Below are positions 29,449 to 50,607 of a DNA stretch of 64,000 nt, piece after piece. Position 1 is the stretch's first letter, and each line of letters starts with the position of its first letter. A program made the position numbers and the translations under genes. The notes below the pieces were generated by a model that was given only the letters and a program-made list of their open reading frames with translations, was not told the DNA's origin and made no database searches. This stretch comes from Thermoanaerobaculia bacterium (GTDB lineage: Bacteria > Acidobacteriota > Thermoanaerobaculia > UBA5066). The stretch covers positions 347,936 through 411,935 of the forward strand of contig JASNYI010000002.1 of assembly GCA_048500275.1 (NCBI GenBank). Reading direction: 5' to 3'.

Positions 29449-29475
29449 ACCGACGGCCCGACGGGGCGTGCGAAG

Positions 29476-32400
29476 ATGAAACCCTTCAGCGGAGAGGGTG
29501 AACGTGTGAGGCGAAGGGCCGGGAACGAGGCCGCGCGGCCGCCGGAGTGGGTCATCCCCGGAACCGACGTCCTCGCGGGCGCGGCCGAGGTCGGACGGCT
29601 ACTTCACGCGGCTCTTCCGGCTTTCGCCTGGGGTCGCCGGGCCGGCAACGCCTGGGTCCTCGGGCCTGCCCCTCCGCCCCGGCGCCTGCCGGAGGACCTC
29701 ACCGACGTCGAGCACGCCGCGTTTCTCGTGCGGCTCGCGGGCCTTCTCTCGTTCCTCAGCGCGCACGGTCTCGGCCTCTCCCCGGAAGGGGTGAAAGCCC
29801 TGGGGACCCGGCCCGGCACCCGGGACGTCCCGTGGCTCCAGGCTCCGCCTGTTCCCGCCTTCAGGGCTGTGGCGGCGCCGTTCGTCCTGGGGAGCGTGAC
29901 ACTCCGCCTCGCGGGGAGGGAAGCCGCCGCCGACAGGGCCCGCGACGCGAGGAGGGCGATGGAGGAAGCCCTCGCCGAGGGTCTCCCGGCGAGGTCGCTG
30001 GAGGCCGTCGCGGCGGCGCTCCGGGCGTCGGACGGTGTCCGGTCGTCAGAGGCCCTGCTCCTCGACCTCGCGGGGACGGCCGGCATCGGGGAAAGGGTCG
30101 CGCTCGACCTCCTCGGGCTCGCCGTGCCCCGCGAGGTCGCACCCGCGTCCGGCGAGCGGCTCGTGGCCAGCGGGGGAGAGGCGGACTGGATCGCCCGTGG
30201 TGCGGCCCGGCGCGCGCCCGCGGAGAACGGCTTCGCCGAAGCGGGGCCGCCGGCATCCCTGGAGGACGGCGCGTGCCTCCTCGAGCTGGCGTCGGGGCTC
30301 GGTCCCGATCCGCGCGCGGCCGTTCTCGAGGCCCTCGCCCGCGGCGAAAAGCCCTCCCCGCAGCCGGGTCCGCCGCTGGTCCTCCTCGCGCGGGAGCTCG
30401 AGCGGTGGGACGAGCGGTCCCGGCAGGGCTGGGAGCAGCTCCCCGGGCTGGTCCCGGGGGTTTCGAGAGTCGAGTCCCGCGCCGATGCCCCGCCGCCGTG
30501 GCAGAAGGTCTCCCTTCTCGTTCCCCGCCTCGGGCGCGAGGAGGTCTCGGGTCTCGTTCACCTGCCTCTCGCCTCGCCGCCGGCCTTCTCGCGCCTCTGG
30601 GAGGAGCTGGCCGAGGAGGCGGCGGGAGACCCGGCTTGCCTTCTTCGCGGGGCAAGGCTTCGGGCGAGGAGCTTTCTGGCCGGACCGGGCCGGGCGCCGT
30701 CTCGCCGGCGGGGAGCCGCCGCCCCCGACGCGGTCCTCCGGGCGTCCGCCCTCCTGGGCGACGGCTTTCCCCTTTTCGAGGCGGCCGCGGCGGCCGGGAC
30801 CCCGCCGGAAAGGACGGCCCGGGTCCTCGCGGAGGCGTGCGACGACGGCACCCTGGTCCGTACGCCGGGCGGCGGTTTTCGCTTCGCGGAGGAGGGCCTG
30901 CGGCGCCGGCTCGCCGCGGGCCTCTCGCCCACGGAGATCGCCTCGAGCCTGGCCAGACTCGAGGCCGCCGGGACCGGTGCGACGAGGCTCCTTCTCGCGA
31001 GGTTGACCGGCGGGCCGTCGACGTCCGACCTCGACGAGTGCCGGCGGCGGCTGTTAGAGGCCGTCCGTTCGGGGCGCGGCGACGAGGCGGCGGCGCTCCT
31101 CGGCCGCGCGCCTTCCGAGGGCCCTGACCTCGGGGAACCGGCCCTCGCCGCGGAGGCCCACGCTGCGGCCGGACGGATGGAGGACGCGCGCGCCTCGGCC
31201 GGCCGCGTCGACACCCGCCAGCTGACGGGACTGGCTCCGGGCCGGCGCGAGAAGCTCGCCCGGCTCCTCGCCCGGCTCGGCGAGGAGTCGAAGGCGCTCG
31301 AGCTCGTCTCCGCGACGGAAGGACTGGACGGGCGACTCGCGAGGGCGGATCTCCTCCTCCGCCTGCGCAGGGAAGGAGAAGCGGCGGAGGTCCTCGACGG
31401 CGTCCTCCCGGGGGACGGCCCGCATGCCGCGAGGGTCCACCTCCTGCGGGCGGAGCTCCACGAGAGGCGCCAGGAGCTGCCGCGGGCGGAGGAGGAGCTG
31501 CGGGCCGTCGCCGCCTGCCTCGACCGCTTCCCCGATGCTCCCGGGCTTTCCGAGACCGGGTTCACGGCCGGCTACCTCGCTCTCGGTCTCGGAAGGACCC
31601 GGGAGGCGCGCGCATTCTTTCGCGCGGCCAGAGACGACGCCCGCGACCCCTCGAGACGGGCCGACGCCCTCTTCGACCTGTCGGTGGCCGCCGCGGGGGA
31701 GGGCGAGCTGGCGGAGGCGGAGGCGACACTCGAGGAAGCCCTCGCGCTCTACTCCGCGATCGGGGAGAGGGGCCGCTACCTCGGAGCGCTCGGCCAGAGA
31801 GCCGCCGTGGCCCTCCAGCGGAGCGACGCGCGCGCGGCCCGCCGCGACCTGGAGACGGTCCTCGCCCACGACCGGATGCCGGGGCGGGCCTTCCAGCTCC
31901 TCTTCTCGCTCCCGCTGCGGCAGCGCCTCGCCCTCGCCGACGGCGACGACGCGGACGGCGCCGAGGCTTTCGCGGAGGCGGAATCCCGCGCGACCGAGTG
32001 CCCGGACCACCCCGCCCGGCGAGAGGTGCTCGTTCTCGAGGCGGCTCGTCTCCTGGCGGCGGGCCTCGCCGCCGAAGCGCTCGCAAAGGCCGCGGAAGCC
32101 GAGCCCCTTCCGGATGCCCGCAGCGGCGTCGAGCCGCTGCGCGCGAGGCTCGCGGCCTCTGCGCTGCGCGACCTCGGGGGAGATCCGGCTCCTCCGGCGT
32201 CGTTCGAAGGCGAGGAGCGGGCGCTCCAGGAAGCCGAGGGGGCGCTGGTCGCGGGGCTGCCGCCGGCCCCGGCCGCCCGTCGGGCGCTCGCGGATCGCTT
32301 CGAGCGTCCCGAGGGAGCGATCGAGGTGGTGACGAGGCTCCTCGAGTGGCGAGGGCGCTTCCCCTCGTTTTTCGCGGCGCCGGAGTCGTCGCCGCTGCGC

Positions 32401-33417
32401 GAGCTGGGGCTTCGGGCCGCGCGACGCGCGGGACTGGACCGCGCGTCCCGGCGCTTCGCGGCCGTCCCGGCGGCGGAGATGCCCGAGGGGCGCGGCCCGG
32501 CGGCCCCCGACGACACCCCGTTCGTGGCGGAAGACGCGGCGACACGGGAGGTCCTGGAGACGGTCCGCCGCGTCGCCCCCCACAGGATCTCCGTCCTCGT
32601 CCTCGGGGAAAGCGGGACGGGGAAGGAGCTGGTGGCGCGGGAGGTGCACCGCGCCTCACGACGCGCCGGCCCGTTCGTCGCCGTGAACGTGGCGGCGCTC
32701 CCGGAGACGCTCGCGGAGGCGGAGCTCTTCGGCGCCGCCCGGGGAGCCTTCACGGGGGCCGAACGGGACCGGGCCGGCGTCATCGAGGCTTCGTCCGGAG
32801 GGACGCTCTTCCTGGACGAGATCGGCGACCTCTCGCCGCTCGTCCAGTCCAAGCTGCTGCGCGTCCTGCAGGAACGCGAGGTGAGGCGGCTCGGCGAGAC
32901 ACGGACGCGCGCCGTGGATCTCCGGCTCGTCGCGGCCACCCATCGCGACCTCGGCCGGCTGACCGGAGAGGGGCGATTCCGGGGGGACCTCCTCTACCGG
33001 ATCGCGGGGATCACCGTCACGCTGCCTCCGCTGCGGGAGCGGCCGCGGGACCTGCGCGCCCTCCTCGAGAAGGCTCTTGGCGGAACTCCCGTCTCTCCCG
33101 AGGCCAGAGCGGCCCTCCTCTCCTGGCCCTGGCCCGGAAACGTGAGGGAGCTCCAGTCGGCCGTCGAGGCAGCGAAGGCGCTCGCGGGCGGGGGGCGCGT
33201 GGAGAAGGCGCACCTCCCCGCCCGGCTCCGCGAGGAGAGAAACGTTCCCGGGGGAGGAAAGGGCCGCTACCGGGAGGCCGTGGACGAGGCGAAGAGGAGG
33301 GTCATCCGCGAGGCGCTCTCGGAGGCGGGAGGGAACCGGACGCGGGCGGCCGCGCTCCTCGGGCTGTCGAGGCAGTCCCTCCTCTACGAGATCAAGAGGC
33401 TCGCTCTCACCGACTAG
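29476..33417 (+). CDS. Sigma-54-dependent transcriptional activator (bacterial enhancer-binding protein) with a ~950-aa N-terminal region of TPR-like/unknown domains
   Basis: C-terminal AAA+ sigma-54 interaction domain (GESGTGKE Walker A, GAFTGA loop, LFLDEIGDL) and Fis-type HTH (SRQSLLYEIKRL). The N-terminus has no REC, GAF or PAS domain that I can recognise. Confidence 0.8.
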   Translation: MKPFSGEGERVRRRAGNEAARPPEWVIPGTDVLAGAAEVGRLLHAALPAFAWGRRAGNAWVLGPAPPPRRLPEDLTDVEHAAFLVRLAGLLSFLSAHGLGLSPEGVKALGTRPGTRDVPWLQAPPVPAFRAVAAPFVLGSVTLRLAGREAAADRARDARRAMEEALAEGLPARSLEAVAAALRASDGVRSSEALLLDLAGTAGIGERVALDLLGLAVPREVAPASGERLVASGGEADWIARGAARRAPAENGFAEAGPPASLEDGACLLELASGLGPDPRAAVLEALARGEKPSPQPGPPLVLLARELERWDERSRQGWEQLPGLVPGVSRVESRADAPPPWQKVSLLVPRLGREEVSGLVHLPLASPPAFSRLWEELAEEAAGDPACLLRGARLRARSFLAGPGRAPSRRRGAAAPDAVLRASALLGDGFPLFEAAAAAGTPPERTARVLAEACDDGTLVRTPGGGFRFAEEGLRRRLAAGLSPTEIASSLARLEAAGTGATRLLLARLTGGPSTSDLDECRRRLLEAVRSGRGDEAAALLGRAPSEGPDLGEPALAAEAHAAAGRMEDARASAGRVDTRQLTGLAPGRREKLARLLARLGEESKALELVSATEGLDGRLARADLLLRLRREGEAAEVLDGVLPGDGPHAARVHLLRAELHERRQELPRAEEELRAVAACLDRFPDAPGLSETGFTAGYLALGLGRTREARAFFRAARDDARDPSRRADALFDLSVAAAGEGELAEAEATLEEALALYSAIGERGRYLGALGQRAAVALQRSDARAARRDLETVLAHDRMPGRAFQLLFSLPLRQRLALADGDDADGAEAFAEAESRATECPDHPARREVLVLEAARLLAAGLAAEALAKAAEAEPLPDARSGVEPLRARLAASALRDLGGDPAPPASFEGEERALQEAEGALVAGLPPAPAARRALADRFERPEGAIEVVTRLLEWRGRFPSFFAAPESSPLRELGLRAARRAGLDRASRRFAAVPAAEMPEGRGPAAPDDTPFVAEDAATREVLETVRRVAPHRISVLVLGESGTGKELVAREVHRASRRAGPFVAVNVAALPETLAEAELFGAARGAFTGAERDRAGVIEASSGGTLFLDEIGDLSPLVQSKLLRVLQEREVRRLGETRTRAVDLRLVAATHRDLGRLTGEGRFRGDLLYRIAGITVTLPPLRERPRDLRALLEKALGGTPVSPEARAALLSWPWPGNVRELQSAVEAAKALAGGGRVEKAHLPARLREERNVPGGGKGRYREAVDEAKRRVIREALSEAGGNRTRAAALLGLSRQSLLYEIKRLALTD

Positions 33418-42764: not shown

Positions 42765-44447
42765 ATGAAGCTCAACGCTCTGGTCCTTCCGGTGACGGCG
42801 GCGATCCTCCTGACGCTTGGAGCGCCCGCGTTCGCGGACTGCCCGACCGAAGGGTGCCCCGCACAGACCGTCGGGACGATCGAGCTCCCGGCGGAGGGAG
42901 CGCTCGTCTCGGGCTACGTCCGCGTGGCCGGCTTCGCGCTGAACGGGAGCCTCGTCTCGAACGTCGACCTCTATATCGACGGCACGGAGGAGGTCAACCG
43001 GGTCACGCCGGCGGGCGGCGCGAACATCAACCTGCCCCGGCCGGACGTCATGCAGGCCTTCCCGCAGTACGCGGGGACGCCGGGCGACGCCCCCGGCTTC
43101 GAGATGTCGTTCCGCGCGGCGAATTACTCGAACGGAACGCACAAGCTCTACGTCCGGATCACCGACGTCACCGGCTGCTGCTACTTCCTCGCGCCGCGGA
43201 CGATCCGGATCGACAACTCGCGGAACCAGCCGCCGTTCGGGGTCGTCGACGTGCCGCTGCCCGACTCCTCCGTCCACGCCAACGGTGTCCTCGCCGTCGC
43301 GGGGTGGGCGCTCGACGACCGGCGCGTCGAGCACGTCGACGTCTTCATCGACGGGCGTCTCGAGCGGGAGGCGGTCCTCGGCATCAACCGCCCCGACGTC
43401 GCGGCCTACTACCCCAACGTCCCGGGCGCGACGAGCTCCGGCTTCCTGATCTTCATCGACTCCACGCGCCTGACGAACGGCGTCCACACCCTGACCGTCC
43501 GGGCCACGGATGACCAGGGCCAGCAGGGGCTCCTCGGCACGCGGCGCTTCCAGGTCTTCAACAACGCGCCGAACCTCCCGCCGTTCGGCGAGGTCGAGCA
43601 CCCGCTCCTCCAGGCCACCTGGTTCGGGAACTGCCTTCGTCTCCCGGGCGGGCCGTCCGGCGGCGAGATCCGCGACACCCGCTACATCATGTTCGTCTCG
43701 GGGTGGGCGCTCGACACGTCGATCTATGCCGAGCGCGGGGGCGTCTCCCACGTCTTCCTCGAGATGGACGGCGTCGTCCTGAAGGACAGCCGCGGCGCCT
43801 TCGGCACCCTCGGCTGCCGTCGGGAGCTGAACCTCAACAACGCCCTCATCGACTGCTACGGCTTCTACCGGCCCGACGTGAACATCTTCTACCCCGGCTT
43901 CCCGCAGTCGGCGAACTCGGGCTTCTTCTTCGCGGTCGACGTGGGCTACCTCCTTACGGACCAGGGGTTCAAGGAGGGGAACCACATGCTCCAGGTCAAG
44001 GCGGCCGACAAGGAGGACAACGTCACCCTCCTCAAGGAGCTGCCGATCAACATCGAGTGCGCCACGCAGAACCTCGACCCGCCGCCGCTCGGCTACGTCG
44101 ACAGCCCGGCGAACTACGAGTTCGTGGGCGGGATCTTCCCGGTGTTCGGGTGGGCCCTCGACCTCGACGGCGTCGTCCGCGTGAGGGTCCTCATCAACGG
44201 CGTCCCGCAGGTCGACGCCGTCACCGGCCACGACTACGCCGAGTACGGGCTCCCGAGCCCCGACGTCTCCGCGATCTACCCGAACTACCCGCAGCGCTCC
44301 AACGCCCGCTGGCGCTTCTACCTCGACACGACCAAGCTCGCGAACTCGGAGCACGACATGCTCGTCGAGGTCATCGACGGGCGCGGCAACTACCGCTCGG
44401 CCGGCACGCGCCGCTTCATCGTCAACAACAACACGCTCGTCCGCTGA
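42765..44447 (+). CDS. Secreted protein composed of four tandem ~130-aa repeats (unknown fold)
   Basis: Signal peptide. Four repeats share G(W/F)ALD...V..VDV.IDG.....NRPDV...YP....SGF......L.NG.H.L.VRA.D..G...G.RRF.V.NN. Confidence 0.8.
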   Translation: MKLNALVLPVTAAILLTLGAPAFADCPTEGCPAQTVGTIELPAEGALVSGYVRVAGFALNGSLVSNVDLYIDGTEEVNRVTPAGGANINLPRPDVMQAFPQYAGTPGDAPGFEMSFRAANYSNGTHKLYVRITDVTGCCYFLAPRTIRIDNSRNQPPFGVVDVPLPDSSVHANGVLAVAGWALDDRRVEHVDVFIDGRLEREAVLGINRPDVAAYYPNVPGATSSGFLIFIDSTRLTNGVHTLTVRATDDQGQQGLLGTRRFQVFNNAPNLPPFGEVEHPLLQATWFGNCLRLPGGPSGGEIRDTRYIMFVSGWALDTSIYAERGGVSHVFLEMDGVVLKDSRGAFGTLGCRRELNLNNALIDCYGFYRPDVNIFYPGFPQSANSGFFFAVDVGYLLTDQGFKEGNHMLQVKAADKEDNVTLLKELPINIECATQNLDPPPLGYVDSPANYEFVGGIFPVFGWALDLDGVVRVRVLINGVPQVDAVTGHDYAEYGLPSPDVSAIYPNYPQRSNARWRFYLDTTKLANSEHDMLVEVIDGRGNYRSAGTRRFIVNNNTLVR

Positions 44448-44583: not shown

Positions 44584-45507
44584 GTGATGGAACGGAGCCT
44601 TCGGCAGCGCCTGCGGATGCTGCGCCACGAGTACGACCTCGGGCGGGGCGCCGGCGGGAGCCGGCTCCAGGGGCTGAGGCACGCCGCGTTCTCGGTCTGG
44701 GCCGACTGCGTCCGGAGGAGCCGGCCGCTCGCGTGCGACTGGAACGCGCTCACGGAGGCGGACCTGTGCCCGCACGACGAGGTCCGGACGATCCGGTTCG
44801 TCCCGCGGCTCATCGTCCGCTGCCGCCGCTGCGGCGTGGCCTTCGCGACGCGGCGCGACGACCTCTCCACGGCGACGGAGAGGCACGACGGCGACTACTT
44901 CCGGGCGAACAGGGACTTCGTCTACCCCGACGGGAAGCCGGACGTCTTCAGCTACGTCATGCCGCGCACCCTCTTCTTCCTGGCCCTCGGCATGTACGCC
45001 TTCCGGCCCCGGAACCGCAGGGCCCTCGACGTCGGCTGCGGAATCGGGATCATGGTCCACTACCTCCGCTTCCTCGGGTTCGACGCGGAGGGGGTCGAGA
45101 TCTCCGAGTGGGGCGTGGAGTACGCCCGCCGGGAACTCGGGCTCGAGAGGGTCCGTCGCGGCACGGTGCAGGAGGCGGCCTACCCGGCGGCGTCCTTCAG
45201 CCTCGTGACGCTGGTCCACGTCGTCGAGCACCTCGACGACCCGGTGCCCGTGCTCCGGGAGGTCTTCCGGATCCTCGAGCCGGGCGGCCTCGTCTACGTC
45301 GAGCTGCCGTGCTCCGAGCGCGACCCGTCCGACTACTACATCGACGACCACTTCTGGTTCTACAGCCCCGACTCGCTGAAGCGGCTCCTGTCGTGCGTCG
45401 GGTTCCGGGACGTTCGCGTGGGGGAGGGGACGTTCGCTCCGCACCTGCACCACGTTCCGTTCCTGTTCGCCGCGGGCACGCGGCCGGCGGACGCTCCACC
45501 CGCGTGA
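44584..45507 (+). CDS. Class I SAM-dependent methyltransferase with an N-terminal Cys4 zinc-ribbon-like segment
   Basis: C-x10-C-x17-CxxC preceding the SAM motif I LDVGCGIGIM and the post-I acidic residue. Confidence 0.7.
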   Translation: MMERSLRQRLRMLRHEYDLGRGAGGSRLQGLRHAAFSVWADCVRRSRPLACDWNALTEADLCPHDEVRTIRFVPRLIVRCRRCGVAFATRRDDLSTATERHDGDYFRANRDFVYPDGKPDVFSYVMPRTLFFLALGMYAFRPRNRRALDVGCGIGIMVHYLRFLGFDAEGVEISEWGVEYARRELGLERVRRGTVQEAAYPAASFSLVTLVHVVEHLDDPVPVLREVFRILEPGGLVYVELPCSERDPSDYYIDDHFWFYSPDSLKRLLSCVGFRDVRVGEGTFAPHLHHVPFLFAAGTRPADAPPA

Positions 45508-46484
45508 CGGGCCGCCTCCCGGAGCCGCTGCGCCGGCTCGCCCGTCGGATCGTGCCGCTCCCCGTGCGGCTCGCGCTGAAGAGGCGACGGGGCGCCGCCG
45601 AGGTGTGGAGCGAGGCGCCCGCGCCCGTCGTTCCCGGCCGTGAGCTCCACTGGACGCAGCTCGCCGCGGTGCGCGAGCACGTCAACCGCCGCGTCTCGGG
45701 AGACCCGGCGGTCGACCCCTACATGAACTTCCTGCGGACGCGGCTCGGGGGACGACTTCCCGTCGGCAGGGCCCTGACGATCGGCTGCGGCGAGGGGGCG
45801 CTCGAGCGCGGGCTCGCCGCGCACGGCTTTGCCGAGCGCCACGACGCCGTCGACATCGCCGCGGGGGCCGTCGAGCGCGCCGCGGCCGCGGCGCGGGAGG
45901 CGGGGCTCGACCACCTCCGGTACGGCGTCGCCGACGCGAACCGGCTCCGCCTCGAGCCGGCGTCCTTCGACATCGTCCTCGGGGTGCAGGCGGTCCACCA
46001 CGTCGAGAGGCTCGAGCACCTCTTCGGCCAGGTGGCGAAGGCGCTCCGGCCGGACGGCTTCCTCTTCCTCGACGAGTTCGTCGGTCCGAGCCGGTTCCAG
46101 TGGACGGAGCGTCAGCTCGAGGTCGTCGACGGGCTGCTGCGCGCCCTCCCCGCCGGCCTTCGCCGGAGCCTCGTCGACGGCTCCGTCCGCGGGAGGGCGC
46201 GACGGCCGTCGGTGGCGGAGGTGATCGCCACGGACCCCTCCGAGGCGGTCCGCTCCTCGGAGATCCTCGCGGTCGCGTCGGAGTTCTTCGAGATCCTCGA
46301 GGTGCGGCCGTACGGCGGCACCGTTCTCCAGGTCCTCCTCGACGACATCGCAGGGAACTTCGCGCGGCCCGGGTCGGGCGGCCGGGAGATCCTCGACGCG
46401 ATCGCCGGCCTCGAGTGGGCGCTGATCGAGGCAGGAGACCTGCAGAGCGATTTCGCGGTCGTGGTCGCCAGGGCGAAGGGCTAA
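45504..46484 (+). CDS. Class I SAM-dependent methyltransferase
   Basis: Motif I LTIGCGEGAL; Methyltransf_11/12-like. The GTG start overlaps the preceding stop (GTGA). Confidence 0.65.
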   Translation: MTGRLPEPLRRLARRIVPLPVRLALKRRRGAAEVWSEAPAPVVPGRELHWTQLAAVREHVNRRVSGDPAVDPYMNFLRTRLGGRLPVGRALTIGCGEGALERGLAAHGFAERHDAVDIAAGAVERAAAAAREAGLDHLRYGVADANRLRLEPASFDIVLGVQAVHHVERLEHLFGQVAKALRPDGFLFLDEFVGPSRFQWTERQLEVVDGLLRALPAGLRRSLVDGSVRGRARRPSVAEVIATDPSEAVRSSEILAVASEFFEILEVRPYGGTVLQVLLDDIAGNFARPGSGGREILDAIAGLEWALIEAGDLQSDFAVVVARAKG

Positions 46485-49060
46485 CCGCCCGCGCCCGCGG
46501 GGGTGCGCCGCGGCCGGTCCGTCGGGCCCCGGCGCCGAGAGGGCCGCTTCGCCGACCCGGGCCCGGCGAGCGCGGGAAGCCCGGGCGCAGGAAGCGCCGC
46601 GGCGGGCTCCTCCGCGGCGCGGTGGGCGACGCGCGAGAAGAAGTCGCGGACGGCGTCGCCCGCCTCGGCGGCGGCGAGCTCGCTGGGGCCCTCTTCGTAC
46701 CAGTGCGACGGGAGGAAGCGGCGGTACGGGTTCTGGAGGAACCGCCGGCAGACGAGGGCGATGACGCCGACGTCGGTCTCCGAGCGGATCACCCTCCCCG
46801 CGCTCTGGACGACCCTCGTCATCCCGGGGACGACGTAGGCGTACTCGAAGCCGCGGCCGTAGCGCTCCTCGAAGTAGAGGCGCATCCGCTCCTGCTCGAA
46901 GCGCACCTGGGGCAGGGCGGGGGAGACGACGACGACGCCGTGGAGCATCTCGCCCGGGTAGTCGACCCCCTCCGCGAAGGGCCCGCCCGAGACCGCGAGG
47001 AGGAGGATCCGGGAGCGTTCCTCGCGCAGGGCCTCGAGGACGGCGTTCCTCTCGAGCTCCGTGGAGCGGTCCGACGGGCGCAGGACGCGGTGACCCGGCA
47101 GCGGCGGCAGGAGGGCCCGGGCGTCGTCGACGAACCGGTAGGAAGGGAAGAGGGCGAGGACGTTGCCCGGGCAGGCGTCGGCGATCTTCGCGACGTGGTC
47201 GGCGATGCGGGACATCGACGCGGAGCGCCCCTTCCAGGTCGTGTCGACGTCGGCGGCCACGACGACGGCCCGGTTCTCCTTCGGGAATGGAGACGGGAGG
47301 GAGAGGACGGACGTGCGGTCGGGGTCGAGGCCGAGGAGGTCCCGGTAGAACTCGGGGGGGCTGAGGGTCGCCGACATGCCGACCGTCGCAAACGCCGCGT
47401 CGAACGTCTCGCCGAGGAGGCGCGAAGGGTCCTTGCAGAGGAGCGAGAGTCGGGCGCCGCCCGCCCCCCGCGAGGCGACGAGGTCGAAGGCCTCGACGAG
47501 CCGGCCTTCCGGGGCCGCCCGCCGGGCGACGTCGTGGAAGCCGGCGAAGAGGAAGTAGAGGCCGAGGACAGGGTCGTCCGGAACGCGCTCGCCGCCGTTG
47601 CGCAGGTCGGCGAGGTGGCGGACGAGGAGGGACTCCATCGAGAGTCGCACGTCGTCGAGCTTCTCGAGGTCGAGGGGGACGAGGTCCGTCGACGGGTTCC
47701 AAGGGTCCGGGGCGGCGGGGAGCCCCGCGGTCGCCTCGAGGACGAGGGCGAGGACCTCCGAGGCGGCCTCCTGGGCCGCGGCCGCGGTCTTCGGGCTCGT
47801 CGTGCCGATGGCCTCGGAGAGCTTTCGCACCTCGGCTTCCGAAAGCTCGGGCGACCAGATGGCGCGGCCGCGGTCGACGAGGTTGTGGACCTCGTCGACG
47901 AGTAGGAGCGCCCCCTCGAGGGAGGCGGCGTCGCGCAGGCCCGTGAGGGCGACCACCGGGTCGAAGGCGTAGTTGTAGTCGCCGAGGACGACGTCGGCCC
48001 TCTCCGCCAGCTCGAGGGAGACCTCGAAGGGGCAGACCTCCTCGGCCCGCGCTTCCTCGAAGACGAAGTCGGGCTCGAGGTGGGGGGTGGCGGCGAGGAG
48101 CCGGTCTACGAGGCCGGAGGCCTCGAGCTTGGCGGCGTAGTCCTTCGCGAAGGCGCAGTGGTCCTCGTGGCAGAGGACGACGCCGTTGGCGCACATCCGC
48201 TCCTTGGCGCGCAGTCGCACCGAGCGGGCCGAGGCCGCCGCGATCGCTTCGAGGGTCTTCCTGAAGATCTCCTGCTGGGTCGTCTTCGACGTCAGGACGT
48301 AGAGCTTCCGCCCGCCGCGCAGGGCCTCGACGAGCATCGGGAAGAGGGCCGCGGCGGTCTTGCCGATGCCCGTGGGGGCCTCGACGAGGAGCTGCTCGCC
48401 CTGGCGAACGGCCCGCGACACGGCCGCCGCCATCTCGCGCTGGCCCGGGCGGAAGCGCCCGAACGGGAAGACGAGGTCGTCCGCCTCGGCGGCCTTGGCG
48501 TCGGCGAGCGCGAGGTCGCCGAAGAACGCCGCGAGCGTGGCGCGGACCCTCGCGACGAGGTCGGCCTCGACCTCCTCCGCGTCGAACGCCACCGGGACGA
48601 GGCGCGTGTCGCCGGTCTCGATGTCGGCGAGGACGAGGCGGCCGCGGACGGGGCGCTCTTCCGCCCTCGAGACGGCGAGGAGGTACCACTGTAGCTGGCG
48701 CGCGAAGCGGTCGAGGCGCGGCGAGCCGAGGAGGCGCGGAAGCTCCTCGGCGAAGTGGACCGACTTCACCTCGTCGACGACGACGCTCCCGTCGCCGTCG
48801 TCGAAACGGCCGTCGAGGCGCCCCTCCAGGATCGCCGTGAAGCCGTCGACCGGAAACGAGAGACGGACGGCCTTCTCCACCGCGTACCCGGGAATCGTCG
48901 CGAGAGCCTCGGAGAGGACACGGCGGTGGACGGCCTGGCCGATCCACCGGCGCTCCATCGAGTCGCCCCGGCCGTCCCCGATGCGGCGCGCCAGCGGCGC
49001 GAGGAGGGCGCCCGGGGAGAGGGTCACGGTCTTCGCGGCGAGGTCGACCCGGATCGGCAC
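46481..49060 (-). CDS. XPD/DinG-family Fe-S DNA helicase with an N-terminal PD-(D/E)xK (RecB/Cas4-like) nuclease-like domain
   Basis: Helicase motifs: Walker A APTGIGKT, 4-Cys cluster C-x5-C-x3-C ... C, DEVH box LLVDEVHNL, C-terminal HD2 motifs. N-terminal ~180 aa carry GRLDGRFD ... VVVDEVKS, which resemble RecB-nuclease motifs II and III. Confidence 0.75.
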   Translation of the reverse strand: MPIRVDLAAKTVTLSPGALLAPLARRIGDGRGDSMERRWIGQAVHRRVLSEALATIPGYAVEKAVRLSFPVDGFTAILEGRLDGRFDDGDGSVVVDEVKSVHFAEELPRLLGSPRLDRFARQLQWYLLAVSRAEERPVRGRLVLADIETGDTRLVPVAFDAEEVEADLVARVRATLAAFFGDLALADAKAAEADDLVFPFGRFRPGQREMAAAVSRAVRQGEQLLVEAPTGIGKTAAALFPMLVEALRGGRKLYVLTSKTTQQEIFRKTLEAIAAASARSVRLRAKERMCANGVVLCHEDHCAFAKDYAAKLEASGLVDRLLAATPHLEPDFVFEEARAEEVCPFEVSLELAERADVVLGDYNYAFDPVVALTGLRDAASLEGALLLVDEVHNLVDRGRAIWSPELSEAEVRKLSEAIGTTSPKTAAAAQEAASEVLALVLEATAGLPAAPDPWNPSTDLVPLDLEKLDDVRLSMESLLVRHLADLRNGGERVPDDPVLGLYFLFAGFHDVARRAAPEGRLVEAFDLVASRGAGGARLSLLCKDPSRLLGETFDAAFATVGMSATLSPPEFYRDLLGLDPDRTSVLSLPSPFPKENRAVVVAADVDTTWKGRSASMSRIADHVAKIADACPGNVLALFPSYRFVDDARALLPPLPGHRVLRPSDRSTELERNAVLEALREERSRILLLAVSGGPFAEGVDYPGEMLHGVVVVSPALPQVRFEQERMRLYFEERYGRGFEYAYVVPGMTRVVQSAGRVIRSETDVGVIALVCRRFLQNPYRRFLPSHWYEEGPSELAAAEAGDAVRDFFSRVAHRAAEEPAAALPAPGLPALAGPGSAKRPSRRRGPTDRPRRTPAGAGG

Positions 49061-49098
49061 GCTGCATTCTAAGGACGGCGTCGCCTACAATCCTTCCC

Positions 49099-50607
49099 GT
49101 GAAGGGACGGATTCCGAATCGGTCCCGCGCCTGGGGCGCGGCCGCGGCGATCGCGCTGCTCGCCTGCCTCGCCGGGCCGGCGGAGGGCGCGCAGGCGAAG
49201 CGGAAGCCGGCTCCGGCGAGGGAGCCGACGCTGGCCGAGAGGCTGGCCGCGGTGGCCCGCCGTACGCCGACGCGGCACCGGTCGCAGGTGGCCGTCGCGA
49301 TCGCGCCCGTCGGGGAGCCTGCGATCTACACCTTGAATCCCGACGCGGAGCTCATCCTCGCGTCGACGACGAAGCTCCTCGCGAGCGCGGCCGCTCTCGA
49401 CCGGCTCGGCCCCGGCTACCGGTTCCGGACGTCGATCCTGCAGGACGGCGAGCTCCTTGCCGACGGGACGCTCGCAGGGCGAGTCGTCATCCGAGGAGGG
49501 GGAGACCCGGCCATCTCCGGTCGTCTCTACGACAACGACCCGTGGGCCGTCTTCCGGCCGTGGTCGGAGGCCCTCCGGGCGCGGGGCATCAAGTCTATTC
49601 GCGACGGTCTCCTCCTCGACACCTCCTTCTTCGACGACGAGAGGACCCATCCCGACTGGCCCGCGGCCCAGGAGCAGCACTGGTGGCAGGCCCCGGTCTC
49701 GGCCCTCTCCTACAACGACAACGTCGTCCTCGTGCGCGTCACGGGCGGCCTCAGGCCGGGCGGCCGGGCGAGCCTCGGGTTCTACCCCGCGCAGCCGTTC
49801 CTCATGTCCGTCGTCGGGCGCGTGAGGACGCACGGAGGGAGAGGCGCGAACGTCGGTGTCTCCCGCCGGGCCGGCAGCTCGAAGGTCGTCGCCTCGGGGG
49901 CCGTGGGGTCGCGCAGGACGTGGTCCGGAGACGTCACCGTCGTCGACCCTCCCCTCTACCTCGCCTCGGCCTTCTCGCGCGTGCTGGAGGAGGAAGGGAT
50001 CGACCTCGGAGGACCCCCGCAGGTCCTTACGGAGGCTCCGGCCGCGAAGCCGGCCCTCCCGGTCCTCCACGTCCACGAGACCCCGATCCTGCCGGTCCTC
50101 GCCGTGTGCAACAAGAGGTCCCAGTCGTTCTACGCCGAGCAGGTCCTGAAGACGCTCGGCGCCGAGCGGCGCGGACGCGGTACCTGGGAGAACGGTCGGG
50201 CCGAGGTGGCCGAGTTCCTCCGCTCGCTGGGACTCGACCCGGCGCGCTACCGGATCGCCGACGGCTCCGGCCGGTCGCGCGAGAACGTCTCGAGCGCGTC
50301 GGCCTACCTCGACTTCCTCCAGGCCCTCGCCACGAACTGGCGCCACTTCGCCGCCTTCGAGCAGACGCTCGCCGTCACGGGAGACCAGAGCGGTTCGCTG
50401 CGCCACCGGATGCTCGGGCCCGACACGCGGGGAAAGGTCTTCGCGAAGACCGGCACGCTCGCGGGGGTCGTGACTCTGGCCGGCTACGTCGAGGCCCGGA
50501 GCGGCAAGCGGTACGCGTTCGTCCTCCTCGCGAACGGGGGCACCGCGGAGGCCAGCGGGCAGGCGTGGCAGAACCGCATCCTGACGGAGCTGGCCCGGCG
50601 GGGCTGA
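49099..50607 (+). CDS. dacB: D-alanyl-D-alanine carboxypeptidase/endopeptidase (PBP4, S13)
   Basis: Signal peptide; active-site motifs STTK, SxN-like and KTGT. Confidence 0.85.
   Translation: MKGRIPNRSRAWGAAAAIALLACLAGPAEGAQAKRKPAPAREPTLAERLAAVARRTPTRHRSQVAVAIAPVGEPAIYTLNPDAELILASTTKLLASAAALDRLGPGYRFRTSILQDGELLADGTLAGRVVIRGGGDPAISGRLYDNDPWAVFRPWSEALRARGIKSIRDGLLLDTSFFDDERTHPDWPAAQEQHWWQAPVSALSYNDNVVLVRVTGGLRPGGRASLGFYPAQPFLMSVVGRVRTHGGRGANVGVSRRAGSSKVVASGAVGSRRTWSGDVTVVDPPLYLASAFSRVLEEEGIDLGGPPQVLTEAPAAKPALPVLHVHETPILPVLAVCNKRSQSFYAEQVLKTLGAERRGRGTWENGRAEVAEFLRSLGLDPARYRIADGSGRSRENVSSASAYLDFLQALATNWRHFAAFEQTLAVTGDQSGSLRHRMLGPDTRGKVFAKTGTLAGVVTLAGYVEARSGKRYAFVLLANGGTAEASGQAWQNRILTELARRG

Follow-up and report, generated by a model that had tools for sequence, protein, structure and literature searches.

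A probable EndoDinG-type nuclease-helicase encoded in the core chromosome of a high-GC Thermoanaerobaculia bacterium

The 64,000-nucleotide stretch analysed here (the window; positions 347,936 to 411,935 of contig JASNYI010000002.1, assembly GCA_048500275.1) is part of the core chromosome of a Thermoanaerobaculia bacterium and has a guanine-plus-cytosine (GC) content of about 72%. At 46481..49060 on the minus strand it carries a gene for an 859-residue protein that very probably belongs to the EndoDinG subgroup of the bacterial XPD/DinG-like superfamily-2 (SF2) helicases, with two predicted activities, nuclease and helicase, on one polypeptide. The open reading frame (ORF) begins with GTG at 49060 and ends with a TAG stop at 46481-46483. 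The start codon is at the same position as in most of 25 aligned homologs, and is preceded by an in-frame stop at a distance of eight codons. The description of the gene as complete and of the EndoDinG type draws on the ORF list, on the homolog starts, and on chain 9kqh_A (Finegoldia magna DinG, FmaDinG, PDB 9KQH) as the best match by both sequence and fold. The EndoDinG subgroup was named in a 2025 review (PMC11981726), which mentions an EndoDinG of Bdellovibrio bacteriovorus HD100, and the structure and characterisation of FmaDinG followed in 2026 (PMC13650095).

An XPD-like helicase core occupies approximately residues 196-790 (46691..48475), and consists of two motor domains (1 and 2) into which iron-sulphur (Fe-S) cluster and Arch domains are inserted, as judged from Pfam matches and fold. 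The Pfam families matched are DEAD, DEAD_2, HBB (the Arch region of XPD) and Helicase_C_2. Walker A (motif I) is EAPTGIGKT at residues 227-235 (48356..48382), within which A228 to T235 are invariant except for I232, which is nearly so. The Fe-S cluster domain (48032..48193) has the four cysteines C290, C297, C302 and C343, spaced CX6CX4CX40C and all invariant. Walker B (motif II) is VDEVHN at residues 388-393 (47882..47899), of which DEVH is invariant. The Arch domain has an invariant phenylalanine, F503 (47552..47554), and the invariant helicase motif VI, QSAGRVIRS, is present at residues 752-760 (46781..46807).

Upstream of this core is a predicted PD-(D/E)xK nuclease domain of the RecB/Cas4 type (residues 1-195; 48476..49060), recognised by its predicted fold and motifs. 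Two metal-site residues are H45 (48926..48928) and E62 (48875..48877). Nuclease motif II, GRLDGRFD, spans residues 80-87 (48800..48823) and contains R81 and D83; motif III, VVVDEVKS, spans residues 93-100 (48761..48784) and supplies E97 and K99 of the (D/E)xK triad. The homolog and N-terminal-domain alignments also reveal the segment QLQWYLL (48677..48697), whose Q122 and Y126 we take to be the QxxxY motif typical of RecB/Cas4-type nucleases. H45, E62, R81, D83, E97, K99, Q122 and Y126 are all invariant in an alignment of 26 sequences that extends down to 42% identity. Between the start of the protein and the metal site, residues 22-39 (48944..48997) are predicted to form a flexible loop, based on low model confidence, and the alignment shows R25, R26 and G28 of this loop to be invariant. 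The initial annotation, made from the letters of the sequence, had named the Fe-S helicase core from its Walker A, four cysteines and DEVH, and had likened GRLDGRFD and VVVDEVKS to nuclease motifs II and III. All of these elements are located in the 859-residue ORF, and both motifs were correctly read, GRLDG holding D83 and DEVK holding E97-x-K99.

We modelled the N-terminal domain (residues 1-195) with AlphaFold2, using an alignment of 20 N-terminal domains as input. The model has a mean predicted local distance difference test score (pLDDT) of 89.4 and a predicted template modelling score (pTM) of 0.84, and disorder is confined to the loop at residues 23-32 (pLDDT below 50). The fold was compared in two independent ways, by Foldseek (E values) and by a second fold comparison (scores given after the E values). 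Foldseek placed 9kqh first (E 6e-9; 15.7), and RecB/Cas4-type nucleases only after it: Cas4 SSO0001 (6.9e-7; 13.5), EXO5 (8.1e-6; 11.7), ACE1 (1.9e-5, in the Foldseek list), AdnA (2.0e-5; 10.1), AddA (7.0e-5; 8.8), RecE (8.9e-5; 11.2), MGME1 (2.9e-4; 11.4), RecB (4.2e-4; 8.8) and a second Cas4 (6.2e-3 for 7MI5; 11.7 for 7MI4). Dna2 fell outside the Foldseek top 50 and scored 10.0 in the second comparison. The initial annotation would have been refuted by absence of the PD-(D/E)xK fold or of the catalytic residues, and neither is absent; the nuclease domain claimed there is backed by a near-cut-off Pfam match (below), by the fold predictions and by the residue correspondence with FmaDinG. Six matches of nuclease residues 122-176 to a 4191-residue protein were discarded, as this is a giant adhesin with Big_9, cadherin, He_PIG and RTX domains and the match is a spurious one between beta-strand repeats.

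The correspondence with FmaDinG extends over the whole protein. A phmmer search of PDB sequences returned 9kqh_A with E 1.5e-75, aligning residues 34-787 to FmaDinG 29-747, and XPD next (E 1.7e-32). Because the alignment starts at residue 34, it includes the nuclease domain. We rebuilt FmaDinG 29-747 from the printed alignment (line lengths were consistent with the numbering) and re-aligned it to the window protein, which gave 30.4% identity over 704 residues. In the nuclease domain, the metal-site residues H45, E62, D83 and E97 correspond to H40, E54, D75 and E88 of FmaDinG, the scissile-phosphate lysine K99 to K90, and the substrate-binding R81 to R73. In the helicase part, D389 of Walker B corresponds to the ATPase residue D378, and C297 and C302 to the Fe-S cysteines C289 and C294. 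The DNA contacts of the motor and Fe-S domains, K249, K278, K280, R578, F698 and R733, correspond to K259, K286, R288, R612, F738 and R773, and the stacking residue of the Arch domain, F478, corresponds to F503. Apart from K280, which is R288 here, each of these residues is the same in the two proteins and does not vary across the 26-sequence alignment.

Fold comparison of the full-length AlphaFold2 model (pLDDT 83.6; below 50 for residues 22-39) leads to the same protein. Foldseek matched 9kqh_A with E 3.4e-53, a target-normalised TM score of 0.79 and 27% identity over 794 columns. The corresponding E values were 1.7e-32 for archaeal XPD, about 2e-26 for Escherichia coli DinG, about 1e-20 to 3e-22 for Staphylococcus aureus ExoDinG and about 1e-19 for CasDinG, giving 9kqh a lead of 20 orders of magnitude over every other structure. 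The two proteins have the same domain order (N-terminal PD-(D/E)xK domain, motor 1 with four-cysteine Fe-S and Arch inserts, motor 2), and have in common the catalytic H/E/D/E-x-K set plus arginine, the ATPase and DNA-binding residues, and the Arch phenylalanine. They differ in that the window protein is about 110 residues longer, with an extra conserved C-terminal helix followed by a variable, disordered basic tail, and in their hosts, a Gram-positive anaerobic coccus for FmaDinG and a high-GC (about 72%) acidobacterium for the window protein. The features of an EndoDinG are thus found together here: the predicted nuclease fold and its catalytic set, ATPase motifs in an XPD-like core, the CCCC Fe-S domain and the whole-protein architecture. 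The initial annotation had assumed that, among characterised bacterial DinG proteins, any additional domain is an exonuclease of the DnaQ type, a view that the naming of EndoDinG in 2025 and the characterisation of FmaDinG in 2026 have made outdated; the window protein is an additional EndoDinG, and not an unprecedented design.

Several observations weigh against this assignment. Residues 1-200 match Pfam PDDEXK_1 with E 8.4e-4 and 19.8 bits, below the cut-off of 22, and have no match in NCBIfam. A profile built from the 20 N-terminal domains gave no meaningful match among PDB sequences, not even 9kqh. Identity to FmaDinG is approximately 30% across the whole protein and falls to 18% within the nuclease domain. 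Sequence comparison alone lacks the power to place this domain and structure prediction was needed, and the nuclease assignment rests on the predicted structure together with motif conservation. Finally, FmaDinG has three Arch-domain DNA contacts described as particular to EndoDinG; of these, F478 is matched by the invariant F503, and D475 and K482 align to glycines (G500 and G507).

Some of these points could be taken to mean that the N-terminal domain is a degenerate, DNA-binding pseudo-nuclease and the protein a helicase alone. There is a model for such a domain in pExoDinG, for which a DNA-binding pseudo-nuclease has been proposed, and the sub-threshold PDDEXK_1 score and 18% identity to the FmaDinG nuclease domain would fit. 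However, the five catalytic residues, the substrate arginine and QxxxY are present and invariant across homologs, and the fold is predicted with confidence. Invariance of the catalytic set and of QxxxY implies selection on catalysis, and with the catalytic residues apparently complete in the alignment and the fold confidently modelled, we rejected the pseudo-nuclease reading as very unlikely.

What is known of FmaDinG provides a framework for predicting the activities of the window protein. FmaDinG is a Mn2+-preferring single-stranded DNA endonuclease and a 5'-to-3' helicase, and its ATP-dependent digestion into duplex DNA is abolished in the ATPase-dead D378A mutant (PMC13650095). Nuclease activity is lost in E54A, R73A, D75A, E88A and K90A and nearly abolished in H40A; the protein crystallised was the nuclease-dead D75A mutant, and a C289A/C294A mutant is insoluble (PMC13650095). 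In the structure F478 stacks on single-stranded DNA, a contact that the authors suggested to be specific to EndoDinG, and a "gate" of residues 18-28 opens for DNA entry (PMC13650095). The residues needed in this mutagenesis are conserved in the window protein, within the same domain architecture. We infer by analogy that it has both nuclease and helicase activity, with a metal preference like that of FmaDinG. The loop at residues 22-39, with R25, R26 and G28, is likely the counterpart of the gate.

On the FmaDinG model, we predict that the helicase core would load onto a 5' single-stranded tail and translocate 5' to 3' at the expense of ATP, with the Fe-S and Arch domains splitting the duplex. 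The 3'-ended strand would thread through the flexible gate loop into the N-terminal nuclease, and undergo endonucleolytic cleavage at a metal site made up of H45, E62, D83 and E97, with K99 acting on the scissile phosphate and R81 holding the substrate. Under this proposal unwinding feeds the nuclease, and digestion into duplex DNA would therefore depend on ATP.

We also compared the protein with better known helicases and nucleases. Archaeal XPD (Thermoplasma acidophilum; 4A15, 2VSF and 9P55) provides the closest core after 9kqh, both by sequence and by fold, and shares the four-cysteine Fe-S domain, the Arch domain (HBB) and, by family, 5'-to-3' polarity. It lacks a nuclease domain, however, and TIGR00604 (rad3) gives the window protein 127.5 bits, below its cut-off of 246.95. 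The nuclease fold and catalytic motifs are common to Cas4, AddA/AddB, AdnAB, RecB, Dna2, EXO5, MGME1 and RecE, although identity to the window domain is at most 21% for most of them (25% for AdnA). Unlike RecB/Cas4-type systems, the motor here is SF2 XPD-type rather than superfamily 1, and the nuclease is at the N-terminus. Cas4, AddB, Dna2 and EXO5 have an Fe-S cluster in or next to the nuclease, for which the window protein lacks the four cysteines: residues 1-289 contain no cysteine. The nuclease domain is thus without a cluster of its own and the sole cluster site is in the helicase part, as described for EndoDinG. ExoDinG (S. aureus DinG; 8ZEF and 9II8) resembles the window protein in having a DinG-like helicase with an N-terminal nuclease coupled to translocation, but that nuclease is a DnaQ/DEDD 3'-5' exonuclease of unrelated fold, and the sequence match is E 9.5e-8. 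No exonuclease family was matched in Pfam or NCBIfam, and scores on the ExoDinG models were low (TIGR01407, 76 bits against 547.7; NF005981, 88.7 against 789), as were those on models for E. coli-type DinG and YoaA (NF008729, 91.9 bits against 598; NF053712, 116.7 against 680).

The gene sits among housekeeping functions. Elsewhere in the window are genes for Lon protease, a class II aminoacyl-tRNA synthetase, a MiaB-like radical S-adenosylmethionine (SAM) enzyme, a sigma-54 activator, a subtilase, a GGDEF protein, an acyl-CoA dehydrogenase, a PBP4-type carboxypeptidase, a PP2C/SpoIIE phosphatase and an epimerase. We examined conservation of the neighbourhood by all-against-all BLAST clustering of ORFs within 4.5 kb of the helicase gene at 84 loci. 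No cluster recurs in more than 8 of these, and the 8-locus cluster, of PBP4, comprises close relatives only. The divergent PBP4 and SpoIIE neighbours are retained in relatives of 54-88% identity and are absent from one of 43%.

In an alternative reading, the protein would be the DinG of a CRISPR (clustered regularly interspaced short palindromic repeat) type IV system (CasDinG/Csf4) or some other helicase-nuclease of anti-phage defence. The PADLOC model PDLC01439 ("typeIV_DinG; CAS-IV-A associated") matches residues 196-794 with E 2.5e-99, and far down the fold list are DdmD and Hna, both helicase-nucleases of defence systems (E 1e-14 and 2.5e-13). PDLC01439 covers the generic helicase core only, however, and with the NCBIfam model cas_csf4 (TIGR03117) the protein reaches 26.7 bits, where the cut-off is 400. 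The Fe-S domain of CasDinG is degenerate and lacks coordinating cysteines, whereas the window protein keeps four invariant ones, and its fold agrees much less with CasDinG structures (E about 1e-19, TMq 0.45) than with 9kqh (E 3e-53). There are no CRISPR arrays in the window and no matches to Rfam CRISPR repeat families, the neighbours are housekeeping genes, and neither csf nor any other defence gene recurs in the 84 loci. We rejected an identity with CasDinG/Csf4 or another defence helicase-nuclease, which has become highly improbable given the absence of arrays and csf genes, the intact cysteines, the low cas_csf4 score and the poor fold match.

Downstream of the helicase gene, and convergent with it, are two plus-strand genes for class-I SAM methyltransferases (44584-45507 and 45504-46484), coupled by a stop/start overlap (GTGA, 45504-45507). 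The second ends within the helicase stop: CTAA at 46481-46484 is common to the helicase TAG (reverse complement, 46481-46483) and the methyltransferase TAA (46482-46484). This overlap had been pointed out in the initial annotation and is real; a functional meaning was not detected, and the pair is found beside the helicase at none of the 83 related loci, among which are those of relatives with 86-88% identity. Least credible of the alternatives is that the three genes form a restriction-modification-like or MADS-like defence module, for which one can cite the overlapping stops and PADLOC matches of both methyltransferases to mad2 (E about 1e-11, approximately 42 bits) and, weakly, of the helicase to mad8 (E 0.0034), but which we rejected as the methyltransferases match no DNA-methyltransferase family and in Pfam only generic class-I SAM families (Methyltransf_11, 23, 25, 12 and 31), the mad2 matches span about 115 residues of a 492-position profile (the SAM-binding region only), convergent orientation means that the methyltransferases and the helicase are not co-transcribed, and no neighbour, the pair included, is conserved beyond close relatives. 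The stop overlap is local gene packing, and the methyltransferase pair looks like a lineage-specific insertion.

Two other ORFs of the window, both on the plus strand, have unusual features. The first (42765-44447) encodes a 560-residue protein with a signal-peptide-like N-terminus, a Big_7 immunoglobulin-like domain and, by eye, several internal repeats of about 130 residues. The second (29449-33417) is located where the GC content of the window is highest (0.75-0.77) and encodes 1322 residues, the last 300 of which form a sigma-54 activator (Sigma54_activat, AAA lid, HTH_8). The first approximately 1000 residues had no Pfam match at E <= 1e-5. They may represent a sensor region of a new kind; alternatively, the ORF may have been called too long, since stop codons are rare at such GC content.

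The C-terminal end of the EndoDinG-type protein goes beyond that of the FmaDinG alignment, in which W787 corresponds to W747. A helix at residues 792-817 (46613-46687), with invariant E794, F807 and F808, is conserved in the alignment and confidently predicted in the model. Among the matches listed, many relatives from Bacillota end at residue 787, and those from Acidobacteriota and several other phyla reach approximately 808-814. The helix may be a partner-binding element. The remaining tail (residues 819-859; 46484..46606) is rich in arginine, proline and alanine, predicted to be disordered (pLDDT 30-36) and not conserved; its length and sequence vary even between relatives of 85-95% identity, and it reaches the convergent methyltransferase stop.

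On the opposite side, the EndoDinG gene and the PBP4-type (Peptidase_S13) gene diverge, with only 38 bp (49061-49098) between their start codons. A scan of 46200-49500 found no sigma-70 promoter, and two terminator-like sites in this interval are both inside the gene and at chance level. Alignments of the PBP4-type protein to its relatives begin mostly at residue 39-45. A 38-bp gap without a sigma-70 promoter suggests that promoters lie within the coding regions, that another sigma factor is used, or that the PBP4 start is annotated too far upstream.

Relatives of the protein are widespread. A genome scan found them encoded in at least 596 species-level genomes, and a search with the N-terminal domain (E <= 0.001) returned 173 representative clusters. 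The nuclease domain (residues 1 to approximately 177) is N-terminal in all full-length relatives, which have about 780-880 residues. Among the matches listed are Acidobacteriota, Bacillota (Clostridia, Neobacillus, Peribacillus and Paenibacillus), Verrucomicrobiota, Myxococcota, Desulfobacterales, Caldithrix, Fibrobacterota, Latescibacterota and others, and the closest of them are metagenome-assembled genomes (MAGs) of Holophagales and Thermoanaerobaculia (best identity 88%). The 2026 FmaDinG paper lists six orders with EndoDinG (PMC13650095); with at least 596 species-level genomes in many phyla, the family is much wider than that. Relatives from Neobacillus niacini, a Peribacillus sp. and a Paenibacillus sp. 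have matches that begin inside the nuclease domain. Two others, from MAGs of Ca. Azotimanducaceae and of Pseudomonadales, match only from residue 196, and their nuclease domain appears to be missing or very divergent. Since these two and PDLC01439 match only from residue 196, the EndoDinG core appears to have close relatives without the nuclease, and these would be useful for dating the nuclease-helicase fusion.

Absence of a conserved operon partner favours a stand-alone enzyme of genome maintenance rather than a component of a defence system. The gene stands alone, it is located in the core chromosome and its neighbours are the same in related lineages, and thus its cellular role is most likely in chromosomal DNA repair, or in processing of replication forks or DNA ends. 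GTTCN7GTTC is the LexA box of Acidobacterium and alphaproteobacteria. As regards SOS control, this box was not enriched (36 occurrences against approximately 50 expected) and none lies in the 38-bp upstream region, which is a weak test. A more specific and speculative possibility, which we consider unlikely, is that the EndoDinG of the acidobacterial clade is the main single-polypeptide machine for DNA-end resection or stalled forks, taking the place of RecBCD, AddAB or AdnAB, with the C-terminal helix (residues 792-817) recruiting the single-stranded DNA-binding protein SSB or a replisome component.

The fusion of nuclease and helicase was recognisable from raw sequence alone, and its identification adds a high-GC acidobacterial clade, of Holophagales- and Thermoanaerobaculia-like MAGs, to the EndoDinG family. 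Neobacillus, Peribacillus and Paenibacillus are cultivated Bacillales with an aerobic or facultative lifestyle, and members that encode EndoDinG relatives would be tractable genetic hosts. If the resection-machine reading were true, it would give the EndoDinG family a defined physiological job.

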